IMG/VR virus record: IMGVR_UViG_3300021170_000278
Coordinates: 1-24,809 of that record
From: a virus
Taxonomy: Duplodnaviria > Caudoviricetes
Length of the DNA stretch: 24,809 nucleotides
Strand: one strand, 5' to 3'
The notes beneath the pieces were generated by a model, which worked only from the letters and a program-made list of their open reading frames with translations, did not search any database and was not told the DNA's origin. The position numbers and the translations under genes are program-made. This document shows positions 10,676-15,247 of the stretch, in pieces. Position 1 is the stretch's first letter. Each line of letters begins with the position of its first letter.

Positions 10676-10849
10676 TAGCCCAGCAGCCCGACGTGCCTGT
10701 AGCCGTTTGCGTGCCCTCTCGCGCTCTCGCAACAGACATCGAGGGCATACCGCTGTCGACTCTGGTGCGCGCGGTTCCCTCCCGCAGATCGTGCAGAGTC
10801 CTTTCGCTTGGCGGTCAATGCGCTGCTGGCGGGCTTGCTCGGCGATCAT
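10646..10849 (-). CDS. Small C4 zinc-finger protein
   Basis: GLCTICG...CPRC followed by an Arg-rich helix; ATGA coupling to the collagen gene. Confidence 0.7.
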
Positions 10850-11433
10850 TTCCAGCGCGAATCAGCCAATGTCATGGTGAAATTAGCGCCGCCGCCGCCC
10901 CACTGGTGATGACCGTTGAGAAATCGTAGCGTCTTAGTGGCAATGTCGAACGTGTACGATGTTGGGCCCAGGCGCGTACCGCGATCGTAGACGCCGAGCA
11001 CCTCTACCACCGTAGCGTTTGCAGGAATGCCACAATCGAACAGTACGCCGTCGGGCAGTTTCGTGTTGCCGGCGGATTTGTCGACGCACTCAAATGACCT
11101 GACGTAATTCCAACCGTCTCCGCTACCGCCGCCCCCACTACCGGCCGGACCTTGTGGTCCCATCGGGCCTGCTGCACCACTGGGTCCGGGCAGTCCGGCG
11201 TCGCCCTTATCGCCCTTCGGACCAGGAGGCCCGATGGGACCTTGCGGCCCTACTGGCCCTTGCGGACCAGGCGGTCCTTGCGTCTCGCCAGTTTGTGGTT
11301 GAGGCTGAGGTTGATTGAGTGGTACGCAGATCGAGGCGAAGGGCACGCCGCGCTGGACGCAGAACATTCCGGTGATATTCGGAACCTGAGCTGAAGCCGA
11401 AACAATGGCGAGTAGCGCAATTCCGTAACGCAT
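10846..11433 (-). CDS. Signal-peptide-bearing collagen-like fibre protein
   Basis: [16 protein letters not shown]; about 15 uninterrupted Gly-X-Y triplets; 4 Cys; beta-rich C-terminal domain. Confidence 0.85.
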
Positions 11434-11439
11434 GCTCCA

Positions 11440-11464
11440 AGTGTACACCCAAATAGTGTAGAAT
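11440..11464. promoter_or_regulatory. Divergent pair of -10 elements for leaderless starts
   Basis: Minus GTG-TACACT-6nt-ATG(11433); plus GTG-TAGAAT-6nt-ATG(11471). The 37-nt gap has no SD. Confidence 0.65.
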
Positions 11465-11470
11465 CAGTCC

Positions 11471-11830
11471 ATGCAATTCAAGCGCTTGCTCCTGTTTCTT
11501 GCCGCGCTCTGGCTTTCGTGCTTTGCGGCCGTCACTCCTACCAGCATGGCCGACATCTCAGGTGATGGTAACGCTCACGCAATCGCCGCCTCTGGCTTTG
11601 CACGCATGATTATCTTCGTGTGCAAATCGACCAACACCAGCGCCGTGCTGATCGGTGATTCAACGATTGCCACAGGCACCGGGCTGCCTTGCGCCCCGGG
11701 TGGCTCAGTGACGCTGCCGGCGATGCCTCAAGGCGCTGCAGTACAGGATACGGGGTATCAGCTTAGCACTTGGTTTTACCTGATTCAGTCGGGTGACAAG
11801 TTGAGCATCTTGAGGTTCAACCAGCAATGA
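11471..11830 (+). CDS. Signal-peptide-bearing small beta-sandwich protein (decoration-like)
   Basis: MQFKRLLLFLAALWLSCFA|A; N...V.IGDS.....G.P..PGGSVTL pattern; 2 Cys in the mature part. Confidence 0.75.
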   Translation: MQFKRLLLFLAALWLSCFAAVTPTSMADISGDGNAHAIAASGFARMIIFVCKSTNTSAVLIGDSTIATGTGLPCAPGGSVTLPAMPQGAAVQDTGYQLSTWFYLIQSGDKLSILRFNQQ

Positions 11831-12675: not shown

Positions 12676-12676
12676 C

Positions 12677-12931
12677 ATGATTCCCATTCTCGACTTATCC
12701 GGTCTCACTGCAAACGTGATTACAGCGGTCACTGCCTCAGGCATTGCTCCGGAGCTCGCGAGCTTTGTTGTCACTCGCCTCAACGTACTCCCGAGCGGTA
12801 GCTATGCTCGCATCAAAGTATTCGATGAAACAGAGGATTATAGCAGCGAAGAATCCTGCCCTGTGGTCGCCACGAATATCAGTAGCCGTCAGACCAGGAT
12901 TGAAGTAACCCAAATCCCACAGCCGCTCTAA
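12677..12931 (+). CDS. Hypothetical protein (84 aa)
   Basis: GGAG SD, ATG 1 nt after the upstream stop; MIPILDLSGLTANV... Confidence 0.6.
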   Translation: MIPILDLSGLTANVITAVTASGIAPELASFVVTRLNVLPSGSYARIKVFDETEDYSSEESCPVVATNISSRQTRIEVTQIPQPL

Positions 12932-14403
12932 ACCGCTCGTCGCAACGCCACAACACCTAGAGCGCTCAAGCCACCGAACATCAGAAGCGAGAACGTAAAC
13001 CCTTTTGTACTGCCGCCGCCCGCTGGGTCCTGATGCCGCAATGCGTTCACATCGTCATACGTGTTCGCTGCGAGTCCAGCCGGTGTGAGTGGATACGCCG
13101 CGTTCTTCAGCGACGCACCACCACCCGCTGTCGAGTTGAGCGAGAAGTCACCTGTCGATCCGCTGGTGAACGGGTCAGCGCTCAGCGTGATCTCACCCGG
13201 CCCCGCTGGGATGTTGGTGTGATCGTGCTGGTTATTCCCAAAGGCGCAGTTTCGCATGTAGGTCTGACTGCTCGCCGCGTTGATTGCTACAGCAGTGCCC
13301 GCCGAGATTCCGTAGAACACGCAGTTGACGAGAGACAGGTACCCGTTGGCGTTTAAGTTGACCGCTGAGCTTGCGCTGGAGGTATACCACACCGAGTGCT
13401 GAGCCACAAAGGACAAATTGCCGTTTGCGGTGTAAAAGACACTCTGATGCGTGTAACCCTTAAAAATCGAGCGATCAACCGCAATCGTGGTCCCGGCAGA
13501 GATGTTCGGGCATGCGATGTCTGTATAATTCGCGTGGAAATACCCACGGTCCACAACGATAGGCCCGGTATTTGTGATCGCAGCACGGCCGTGATTAATG
13601 CCATTATTTGTAAACTCGGAGTTCCACGCGGTCACCGTTCGAAACGCTGTGCTCACATCAGAGCCGCCCTCGATGCACGAGTATCCCCAGCCTGCGCAAT
13701 AGAAGTTGGCAACGTAGATGTTCGCCGCGGCCGACGTCGAGATGCCCGAGTGATCGGAAGAGACCGTGATAGTGAACCCGATGTTGTCCAGGAACGCCAC
13801 CGTGCTTGAGCCGCCGGTGTGCATCCCGTCTATGTTGCTCGCGGTGGTGATGAGCGGCTGCGCGCCGTAATCGTTATGAGCTGTCTGGTAGCCGCGCAGA
13901 GTGAACTGCACGTTCGGCATTACGAGCGTACTCGTGAATGTGTACGTGGCGCTCTTGAGGTGGGCGATGTTCTGATTGACCATCAACGTGAAAACCTTCG
14001 CCGGTGTTGCGAGACCGCCGCCCAGGTTGCCCGTGCAGGTGCTGGCGCCCGTCCCTACGCTACGGTCCATCGTTGCCGTGACGCCCGCCACAGAGAGCAC
14101 CTCGTACCACCCGAGCGTGCAGCCTGCACCGCCCGTGATGTTGATTACGTTGCCCGGGTGTGTCGCTCCAAAAGCGTGCGCGGCGCTCGTGAGCTGCGTA
14201 GTCGTTCCACCGATCACCAGGTCTGTGTAGGCTTGCTGCGCAGCGTCCTGCGTCGAGAAGTCTGTACCAGGCGCGGAGACGGTGTTGTCGAATCCGCCGC
14301 CCGAAGTATCGCTTCCGGTTGAGCGAACATCCCACTGCATGCCGGCTTGAATCGCGGCGAAGCACGGCACGCACAGAGCGGCCGCGACAATGAACTTAAT
14401 CAT
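12928..14403 (-). CDS. Signal-peptide-bearing right-handed beta-helix (tailspike/pectin-lyase-like) protein with C-terminal TM anchor
   Basis: MIKFIVAAALCVPCFA|AI; Asn/Ser/Thr-rich beta-helix-like repeats, DPF....GDFSLN motif; ends FSLLMFGGLSALGVVALRRAV. ATG 14403 by ATGA coupling. Confidence 0.75.
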   Translation of the reverse strand: MIKFIVAAALCVPCFAAIQAGMQWDVRSTGSDTSGGGFDNTVSAPGTDFSTQDAAQQAYTDLVIGGTTTQLTSAAHAFGATHPGNVINITGGAGCTLGWYEVLSVAGVTATMDRSVGTGASTCTGNLGGGLATPAKVFTLMVNQNIAHLKSATYTFTSTLVMPNVQFTLRGYQTAHNDYGAQPLITTASNIDGMHTGGSSTVAFLDNIGFTITVSSDHSGISTSAAANIYVANFYCAGWGYSCIEGGSDVSTAFRTVTAWNSEFTNNGINHGRAAITNTGPIVVDRGYFHANYTDIACPNISAGTTIAVDRSIFKGYTHQSVFYTANGNLSFVAQHSVWYTSSASSAVNLNANGYLSLVNCVFYGISAGTAVAINAASSQTYMRNCAFGNNQHDHTNIPAGPGEITLSADPFTSGSTGDFSLNSTAGGGASLKNAAYPLTPAGLAANTYDDVNALRHQDPAGGGSTKGFTFSLLMFGGLSALGVVALRRAV

Positions 14404-14705
14404 GGCTTGCATAACACTCTCTTTCTATGTCTGGGCCTCGCCTCGCGTTCGGCCATTGCTTCCGCGACCGTGTAAATAAGATGCTCCATTAATCTACGAC
14501 AGCGATCGTCAAAGTCTGAGAACTCTTCCTCTATCGGGCAATGAGCCCGAATCTTCTTAAACTCTGTTGCGGTAGCAGCAAGCAACGCCGAAAATATAAC
14601 GAGTGGCTTGTCTTTCCCGATAGCGTCACAGATGCGGCGCAACACAACAGTAGACTGTTGGGCTAATTCCCTGCGGTATTTGTAGGTGTTGTCTACATAC
14701 TCCAT
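14400..14705 (-). CDS. Hypothetical cytoplasmic protein (101 aa), lower GC than its flanks
   Basis: TGATG coupling upstream and ATGA downstream; MEYVDNTYKYRRELAQQ... Confidence 0.7.
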   Translation of the reverse strand: MEYVDNTYKYRRELAQQSTVVLRRICDAIGKDKPLVIFSALLAATATEFKKIRAHCPIEEEFSDFDDRCRRLMEHLIYTVAEAMAEREARPRHRKRVLCKP

Positions 14706-15247
14706 CACTTCACCTCCAACTTGACTGACAACCAAGTGAATGTAGCAGGCGAGCTCAGCGCAAAGCATATCACCGTATCGGCCGACAGCGCCGTTGTCCA
14801 GCCGGTCAACGTGGTGTCCTTCAGTTTTGTGACGCCCGTCGCCACTTCGCCGCCGCCTGTGATGTCGGACGACGAACCCGGCCCGGTATACGACGTGTAC
14901 GAGACGGTCTGCACTTTGATCGTGGCGTTTCCGGAGACGTCGCCGACCAGCGAGAATTGCTTGATGGTTCCTGAGTACGTGATGGGCGCTGCGCATCGCG
15001 TGATAGCTGTGAGTGCGGAGCCGCCGCCGTCGAAGAACACGCCGGGTTCATGGATGGTTGGCGCGGAGCCGCCGTCGATGATATTGCCCTTGGCGTCAAA
15101 GGTGGCGATGTCTCCGGGTGTGCTGGATCCAGTGAACATCTGGAACTGTCGGCCGTCTCCATTTCGATCAGCCGCGCGGATCATGTCGTAGGTTATATTG
15201 CCGCGTGCAGCGAACAAGAGAAGTGTTGACCAAATTAGAAAGCTCAT
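14705..15247 (-). CDS. Tail-associated beta protein with hydrophobic N-terminal leader
   Basis: MSFLIWSTLLLFA leader; PGDIATFDAKGNIIDGG fibre-type repeat; jelly-roll-like C-terminal domain; 2 Cys. Confidence 0.7.
   Translation of the reverse strand: MSFLIWSTLLLFAARGNITYDMIRAADRNGDGRQFQMFTGSSTPGDIATFDAKGNIIDGGSAPTIHEPGVFFDGGGSALTAITRCAAPITYSGTIKQFSLVGDVSGNATIKVQTVSYTSYTGPGSSSDITGGGEVATGVTKLKDTTLTGWTTALSADTVICFALSSPATFTWLSVKLEVK

Follow-up and report, generated by a model that had tools for sequence, protein, structure and literature searches.

Predicted export of spike, fibre, and decoration-like proteins in a tailed phage, and their possible attachment to virions at lysis

Gene layout

A 24,809-base virus record (IMG/VR IMGVR_UViG_3300021170_000278; Duplodnaviria, Caudoviricetes), referred to here as the window, carries terminase, tape measure, and tail chaperone genes. 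Seven open reading frames (ORFs) beside its tail genes were analyzed in this study (Table 1). Five of them encode a collagen-like protein, a candidate capsid decoration protein, a fibre-like protein, a beta-helix spike-like protein, and a short fibre/adaptor, each beginning with a signal-like leader. A preliminary description, made from the sequence alone, had listed these ORFs and the cysteine content of their mature products, and both were recovered as given.

Table 1. Features of the tail region (positions in the window; lengths in amino acids, aa; base pairs, bp; nucleotides, nt)
Feature	Position	Strand	Predicted signal (residues)	Mature Cys	Remarks
195-aa collagen-like protein	10846..11433	-	1-15	4	Gly-X-Y ~57-106; first gene after -10-like box
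Divergent spacer, 37 bp	11434..11470				-10-like hexamers back to back, 11459-11464 (+) and 11445-11440 (-), each 6 nt before ATG
119-aa candidate capsid decoration protein	11471..11830	+	1-19	2	Cys51/Cys74; family directly after major capsid gene in three related phages
282-aa fibre-like protein	11827..12675	+	1-15	8	C-terminal domain ~100 aa
84-aa ORF	12677..12931	+	none		Last of antisense unit; no family
491-aa spike-like protein	12928..14403	-	1-16	7	N-terminal beta domain ~17-130, right-handed beta-helix, C-terminal cap
Spike C-terminal tripartite tail	12928..13020	-			Gly/Ser-rich, hydrophobic, Arg-Arg; predicted membrane anchor or sorting signal
Spike Cys95...Cys123 pair	14035..14121	-			Signal-dependent; Phe...Gly in most signal-less forms; putative disulfide
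101-aa ORF	14400..14705	-	none		Between 180-aa and beta-helix genes; no family
180-aa short fibre/adaptor	14705..15247	-	1-13 (weak)	2	phrog_35197/phrog_10330-type C-terminal domain with Cys pair; conserved partner upstream of beta-helix gene
770-aa hub/distal-tail-like protein	15244..17556	-	none		Position after tape measure gene; family in related siphoviruses; no library match
Tape measure protein	17556..22016	-			Context

The region had been described as a single tail-fibre module. It is not one operon: the 119-, 282-, and 84-aa ORFs form a unit that runs antisense to the tail genes, and the collagen gene diverges from this unit. The spacer between them probably holds leaderless promoters. 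TANNNT was found exactly 6 nt before the start of 6 of 59 called genes, versus about 0.9 expected over three spacings, and three of these six genes carry signals. A scan for two-hexamer promoters returned no sites. Further TANNNT-6 nt-ATG starts were seen at window 22368-22757 (-) and 22850-23047 (+) and at L003:10907-11062 (+), the tail assembly chaperone gene being included; leaderless transcripts may be widespread in this phage. At its other end, the stop codon of the collagen gene overlaps the start of a 67-aa early-region gene. An invertible cassette was considered and rejected: no convincing inverted repeats were found around the antisense unit, and contigs of run X1 held no inversion joint. 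Three short contigs of a soil RNA run (X2) lie on the collagen, 119-aa, and 84-aa genes; contigs of this kind cannot show transcription and were not used as evidence.

Signal peptide calls

Signals were called with a purpose-written rule that requires a basic n-region, an uncharged hydrophobic core (h-region), and small residues at -3/-1. When calibrated on spike homologues, the rule was positive for 49 of 50 N-extended sequences and for none of 57 unextended ones (13 more rows were unclassified), and it gave no false positives among 155 members of core phage families. Only 5 of the 32 called window genes were positive, namely the four strong leaders of the region and a 52-aa ORF. Four rule-passing leaders within seven genes is far beyond chance. 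Thus, of the five leaders in the preliminary description, four pass at the cleavage sites proposed there; the fifth, the weak leader of the 180-aa adaptor, fails because its n-region is not basic, although homology to a protein of locus L006 and a Cys pair speak for it. The signal-bearing 52-aa ORF (window 5296-5454, -) is remote from the tail genes, starts 6 nt after a -10-like hexamer, and had no PHROG match.

The beta-helix spike

The spike was modelled as a small beta domain followed by a right-handed parallel beta-helix (predicted local distance difference test, pLDDT, 88.5). A total of 219 candidate homologues was collected, of which 194 span both ends; with 3 unclear rows set aside, 191 (185 distinct) were kept. 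Signal-bearing forms account for 80 of these and signal-less forms for 111, three rows having been relabelled by eye. An alignment of homologues had been proposed as a check on the leaders, and it showed two states: a spike homologue either has a leader or starts with Met precisely at the predicted cleavage site. In signal-less loci such as L019, L028, L031, L040, L050, L051, L054, L060, and L066 a stop codon stands immediately upstream of this Met.

Cys95 and Cys123 are jointly present in 60 of 80 signal-bearing spikes and in none of the 111 signal-less ones, with a single Cys in one signal-bearing row; 78 of the 111 signal-less forms have Phe and Gly at the two positions. In a FastTree phylogeny built with both columns removed, the signal changed state 20 times (at least 13 times on well-supported branches), compared with 61 changes if states were shuffled. 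Among 13 independent pairs, about six changed in the same direction for signal and Cys pair and none in the opposite direction (median p 0.031). The association does not extend to cysteine abundance, which had earlier been read as a sign of export. Mean total Cys is higher in signal-less spikes (8.7 vs 6.7 in signal-bearing ones, before relabelling of three rows), and even counts occur in 43/77 signal-bearing against 64/114 signal-less rows; total Cys was therefore rejected as evidence, and only specific Cys pairs track the signal.

The tripartite tail at the C-terminus was detected in 9 of 80 signal-bearing spikes, the window's included, and in 0 of 111 signal-less spikes; all nine belong to one weakly supported group of 11. 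Its Gly-rich, hydrophobic, and basic segments fit a translocated, membrane-held protein. NCBIfam sorting-signal models gave no match to the tail at E up to 1, in a search whose filters drop weak short matches.

The adaptor and switching of whole modules

A protein ending in the C-terminal domain of the 180-aa adaptor is encoded one or two genes upstream of the spike at 21 loci. By the rule, the adaptor has a signal in 11 of the 14 loci with a signal-bearing spike, compared with 1 of the 7 others (p 0.016). The three misses are L072 (leader seen by eye), L085 (a short contig), and the window. Exactly two Cys are present in the adaptor domain at 13 of the 14 signal-spike loci, while six signal-less partners hold 0, 1, 3, 0, 0, and 2. 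Adaptor state follows spike state, as expected for parts that must meet. L006 encodes a collagen fibre of 1099 aa with no signal, and its extreme N-terminal stretch (residues 6-52) aligns to residues 15-60 of the window's adaptor (49%, E 2e-11). Atlas look-alikes of the adaptor (0.94-0.95) are viral clusters; a sequence search for a solved relative found none.

The switch extends across the module. Within 5 kb, signals are carried by 41 of 172 genes beside signal-bearing spikes versus 26 of 461 beside signal-less spikes. At least two signal-bearing neighbours were found at 14 of 19 loci of the first kind and at 5 of 55 of the second (Fisher p 2e-7). The neighbour counts rest on our own gene calls, with six near-duplicate loci dropped, and come from related phages that are not independent.

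Decoration-like, fibre-like, and collagen-like proteins

For the 119-aa family, 150 rows were listed, of which 139 are short; 107 of these have a leader, 16 are short signal-less forms, and 16 are other. Both Cys51 and Cys74 are present in 13 of 108 rows with a signal (query included) and in none of the 16 short signal-less rows. In L106 and L107 the family member carries a signal and in L018 it does not, and in all three its gene immediately follows that of the major capsid protein; in L102, L108, and the window the gene holds another position. The L018 member was found by profile only, and pairwise BLAST of the 119-aa protein against the L018 and L016 candidates was not significant. No solved relative of the family was found by sequence.

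The rule detected a leader in 28 of 39 members of the 282-aa family. In the C-terminal domain, Cys197, Cys219, and Cys239 are invariant (35/39 aligned). The sequence contains LSIANGGTG, labelled a fibre motif in the preliminary description, and Atlas leads, below 0.9, point to viral clusters. The single-sequence model was poor (pLDDT 42), and a fold search with it returned nothing at E up to 0.001.

PHROG matches of the collagen-like protein rest on the collagen repeat alone, and a homologue search with its C-terminal part found none. A comparison of this C-terminus with a small domain of the 770-aa protein gave no support for their being the same. The window was also compared with a co-occurring strain (40 of 49 differences listed). 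Of the listed differences, 19 of 23 in the collagen frame and 17 of 17 in the spike frame fall on third codon positions; both frames are under purifying selection.

Gene slots in relatives

At nine siphovirus loci the signal-less spike is flanked by a tape-measure-sized gene and a homologue of the window's 770-aa protein. In the short-tailed phages L008, L039, and L047 signal-bearing genes lie between adaptor and head-closure genes, and in the contractile-tailed phage L014 they follow the baseplate genes. In short-tailed phages, a second family was observed immediately downstream of the major capsid gene (L008:1086-1862, L039:5292-6320, L047:5582-6352, and L011), with a signal in 4/4. In locus L036, eight or more genes of one structural module carry signals; the product of one of them, 770 aa long, matches the "internal virion protein" family phrog_511. 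At L013:1871-11482 divergent blocks of signal-bearing genes surround the spike, much as in the window.

The possibility, raised at the outset, that the closest homologues are ordinary host secreted proteins is not borne out. Matches were found in 1 of 401 and in 2 of 401 Acidobacteriota genomes, and pattern-limited scans (with different patterns) gave 18 loci in a genome collection versus 206 stretches in a viral collection. The families are not ordinary host secreted families.

Genome, host, and other genes

The best DNA holder of the window sequence is a soil metagenome. One sequence, G001, is 99.7% identical to the window over their common part, extends it, and rejoins its other end, which gives a genome of about 46 kb. 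Genes for portal, protease, major capsid, major tail, and neck proteins and for a lysozyme-like endolysin are contributed by G001. A Korobacteraceae bin includes a 3.4-kb contig with a gene 75% identical to the N-terminal domain of the spike, and one homologue of the 282-aa protein carries the label Terriglobales. The host is probably a member of the Acidobacteriota, a weak assignment given that short contigs may be misbinned.

Residues 525-603 of the 770-aa protein form the small domain mentioned above, common to L006, L011, and L068. By eye, the C-terminus of this protein is lectin-like, a possible signal-less receptor-binding tip. Contigs of run X1 jump over window 10684-10846 and 10138-10217; these gaps point to a co-occurring strain in which the 67-aa gene after the collagen gene is absent or replaced. 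A row of small antisense ORFs (window 22815-23948, +) separates the tail completion genes from that for the tail chaperone. A D12-class adenine methyltransferase (window 2502-3734, -) is apparently broken into two frames near 3305-3372. In G001, an N-terminal histidine-phosphatase-like domain is fused to a MuF-like head morphogenesis protein (L003:11687-12907, +). GT2 glycosyltransferases together with FkbM-type and TylF methyltransferases are encoded at L003:463-8711 (+), also in G001, and are flanked by terminase and portal. Similar clusters were found in L102, L107, and L108, none with a signal. The cluster resembles mycobacteriophage virion glycosylation (PMC11600133).

Export and virion assembly

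It is generally accepted that tailed virions assemble in the cytoplasm and that disulfides form in the periplasm. Leaders of the type described here send proteins through Sec and signal peptidase I. The five outer proteins of the phage are almost certainly exported. Three of the families, those of the spike, the 119-aa protein, and the adaptor, come in two versions, either with a signal or without one and beginning where the signal would be cleaved. Export followed by disulfide folding was the core of the preliminary description; it is strongly supported by starts at the cleavage site and by a Cys pair and an anchor that occur in signal-bearing forms only.

With regard to the destination of these proteins, we lean, though not strongly, toward a particle that this long-tailed soil phage builds in two compartments, with exported outer parts that attach to the virion at lysis. 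From the leaders, the two-state families, the Cys pair, the concordant neighbours, and the gene slots we infer the following course. The capsid, tail tube, tape measure, and hub proteins, all signal-less, would be made in the cytoplasm. The spike, adaptor fibre, 282-aa fibre, collagen fibre, and decoration-like protein would be exported via Sec and signal peptidase I and are likely oxidised to disulfides in the periplasm. The hydrophobic C-terminal tail may tether the spike to the membrane's outer face, from which a protease would later release it. Exported parts would dock on finished particles as the inner membrane is breached at lysis; tailspikes and decoration proteins are able to attach to completed virions unaided. 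Early expression from separate promoters would suit periplasmic stockpiling and an envelope role alike. Taken more widely, tailed phages may possess a second, extracytoplasmic assembly line in which Sec-routed, disulfide-locked, anchor-parked spikes, fibres, and decoration are joined to virions at lysis, and whole outer modules of phages with long, short, and contractile tails may have moved repeatedly between the cytoplasmic and the exported route; for this general proposal we see the chances as even.

A number of observations weigh against attachment to the particle. Searches with the spike and the 180-aa adaptor found no match in a cultured phage. Of the five genes for exported parts, three lie outside the presumed late operon and are served by separate -10-like boxes; two of the three run antisense. 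The signal-less 770-aa tail-tip protein might alone serve adsorption. The predicted membrane anchor of the spike would have to be lost by a virion part. The Cys95/Cys123 pair is missing from 20 of the 80 signal-bearing spikes, and 41 of the 60 pairs fall in one clade of 43; at L041 a signal-bearing adaptor stands next to a signal-less spike. Finally, a comparison of the mature spike with virion folds had been suggested, and secreted lyases proved to be nearer (PL6, E 8.5e-6; Pel9A, template modelling, TM, score 0.43/0.51) than tailspikes (E 1e-3 or weaker). The fold as modelled is compatible with a virion part or a secreted enzyme and decides neither.

Alternatively, the proteins may be domesticated virion parts that are exported and stay with the infected cell, in its periplasm, in its membrane, or on its surface, as decoys, receptor masks, superinfection exclusion factors, or adhesins, made early from their own promoters. 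We regard this as possible but on balance doubtful. Signal-bearing morons are known from tail regions (Lom, Cor, and Llp). The divergent leaderless-type promoters, the antisense unit, and the link between the collagen gene and the early region agree with such a role; the separate promoters and the membrane anchor of this phage favour an envelope destination. The spike anchor resembles surface-sorting tails (PMC6219818). However, 71 of the 80 signal-bearing spikes are anchor-free, and whole sets change signal state together. Whether the tail is long, short, or contractile, signal-bearing forms stay strictly in virion slots, and such slots favour a virion destination. Long-term lysogenic display is not indicated, since no integrase was matched among the ORFs scanned in the window and G001, a scan that covered part of the ORFs.

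It is unlikely that the proteins are freely secreted enzymes or lectins that loosen host capsule or biofilm polysaccharide for progeny spread and bind to neither particle nor cell. The monomeric-looking, lyase-type beta-helix, with PL6 alginate lyase and Pel9A as its best structural matches, would agree with such a function, but it accounts for one of five proteins, and the decoration-slot and fibre-like families are without enzyme features. Very improbable is the idea that the leaders are wrong start calls or hydrophobic docking helices on cytoplasmic proteins: the calls do come from our own rule, a further weakness of the two-compartment reading, and the fifth leader is without a basic n-region, yet diverse leader sequences keep a constant n/h/c layout and end where signal-less homologues start, the rule was silent on the core phage families, and Cys pair and anchor are found only alongside leaders.

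If exported parts do end on the particle, this would be a new assembly route for tailed phages. According to the textbook view, these phages are complete before lysis, while still in the cytoplasm; periplasmic finishing would insert a further step into the life cycle. Host Sec, signal peptidase, and Dsb would become part of virion maturation and new targets of defence. Disulfide-stabilised receptor-binding parts suited to soil would become possible, particles could acquire parts made by a co-infecting phage, and annotation pipelines would be throwing out genes of this kind as coding for secreted proteins of host type. Matched orthologues with and without a signal provide a natural control, one protein taking two routes, with Cys-Cys versus Phe-Gly as marker. 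Even with an envelope role, virion proteins would have been converted repeatedly to exported, disulfide-bonded envelope proteins, of which no description was found in the literature within reach of our search.

Comparison with known systems

A full-text literature search, with subscription journals mostly outside its reach, found no published account of signal peptides on tailed-phage virion proteins. Effects of dsbA on Klebsiella phages were read by the authors as receptor effects and not as virion maturation (PMC13412088). A cultured parallel is Cellulophaga phage phi18:3 (KC821620), in which the consecutive gp085-gp087 are annotated "structural protein" by tandem mass spectrometry (MS/MS) and all have Sec-type leaders by our rule. 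In the stretch fetched, these are 3 of 12 MS/MS structural proteins, and none of the other 9 has a leader. They differ from the window families in being non-homologous, in having 0-3 Cys, and in their Bacteroidota host, and the record is silent on leaders. As a precedent for particle attachment phi18:3 is weakened by this lack of homology and by particle MS/MS, which could include co-purifying proteins.

The spike tail is like the GlyGly-CTERM/rhombosortase sorting signal (PMC6219818) in being a Gly/Ser-rich, hydrophobic, and basic C-terminal tail on a Sec substrate. It differs in matching no NCBIfam model and in coming after the usual C-terminus of the family. The window proteins share their predicted export with the morons, and moron genes likewise lie beside tail-fibre genes. 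Lom, Cor, and Llp are barrels or lipoproteins and, to our knowledge, are without signal-less virion orthologues; no lipobox was found in the leader proteins of the window.

Beta-helix tailspikes and depolymerases (CBA120 TSP3, 6nw9; Klebsiella K1 lyase, 7w1c; K64-1 S2-4, 9k4a) have, like the window spike, a beta-helix behind a small N-terminal domain and a gene in the tail module. Known beta-helix tailspikes are signal-less cytoplasmic trimers. The window spike differs from them in its leader, its signal-linked Cys pair, its C-terminal anchor, and its better scores to PL6/PL9 lyases. A parallel to the proposed route is seen in filamentous (Ff) phage: its virion proteins pIII and pVIII have cleaved signal peptides, and pIII is in addition membrane-anchored at its C-terminus and has periplasmic disulfides. 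Ff phage assembles during extrusion, with no lysis, whereas the phage described here has terminase, portal, capsid, tail tube, tape measure, and endolysin and is not an inovirus.

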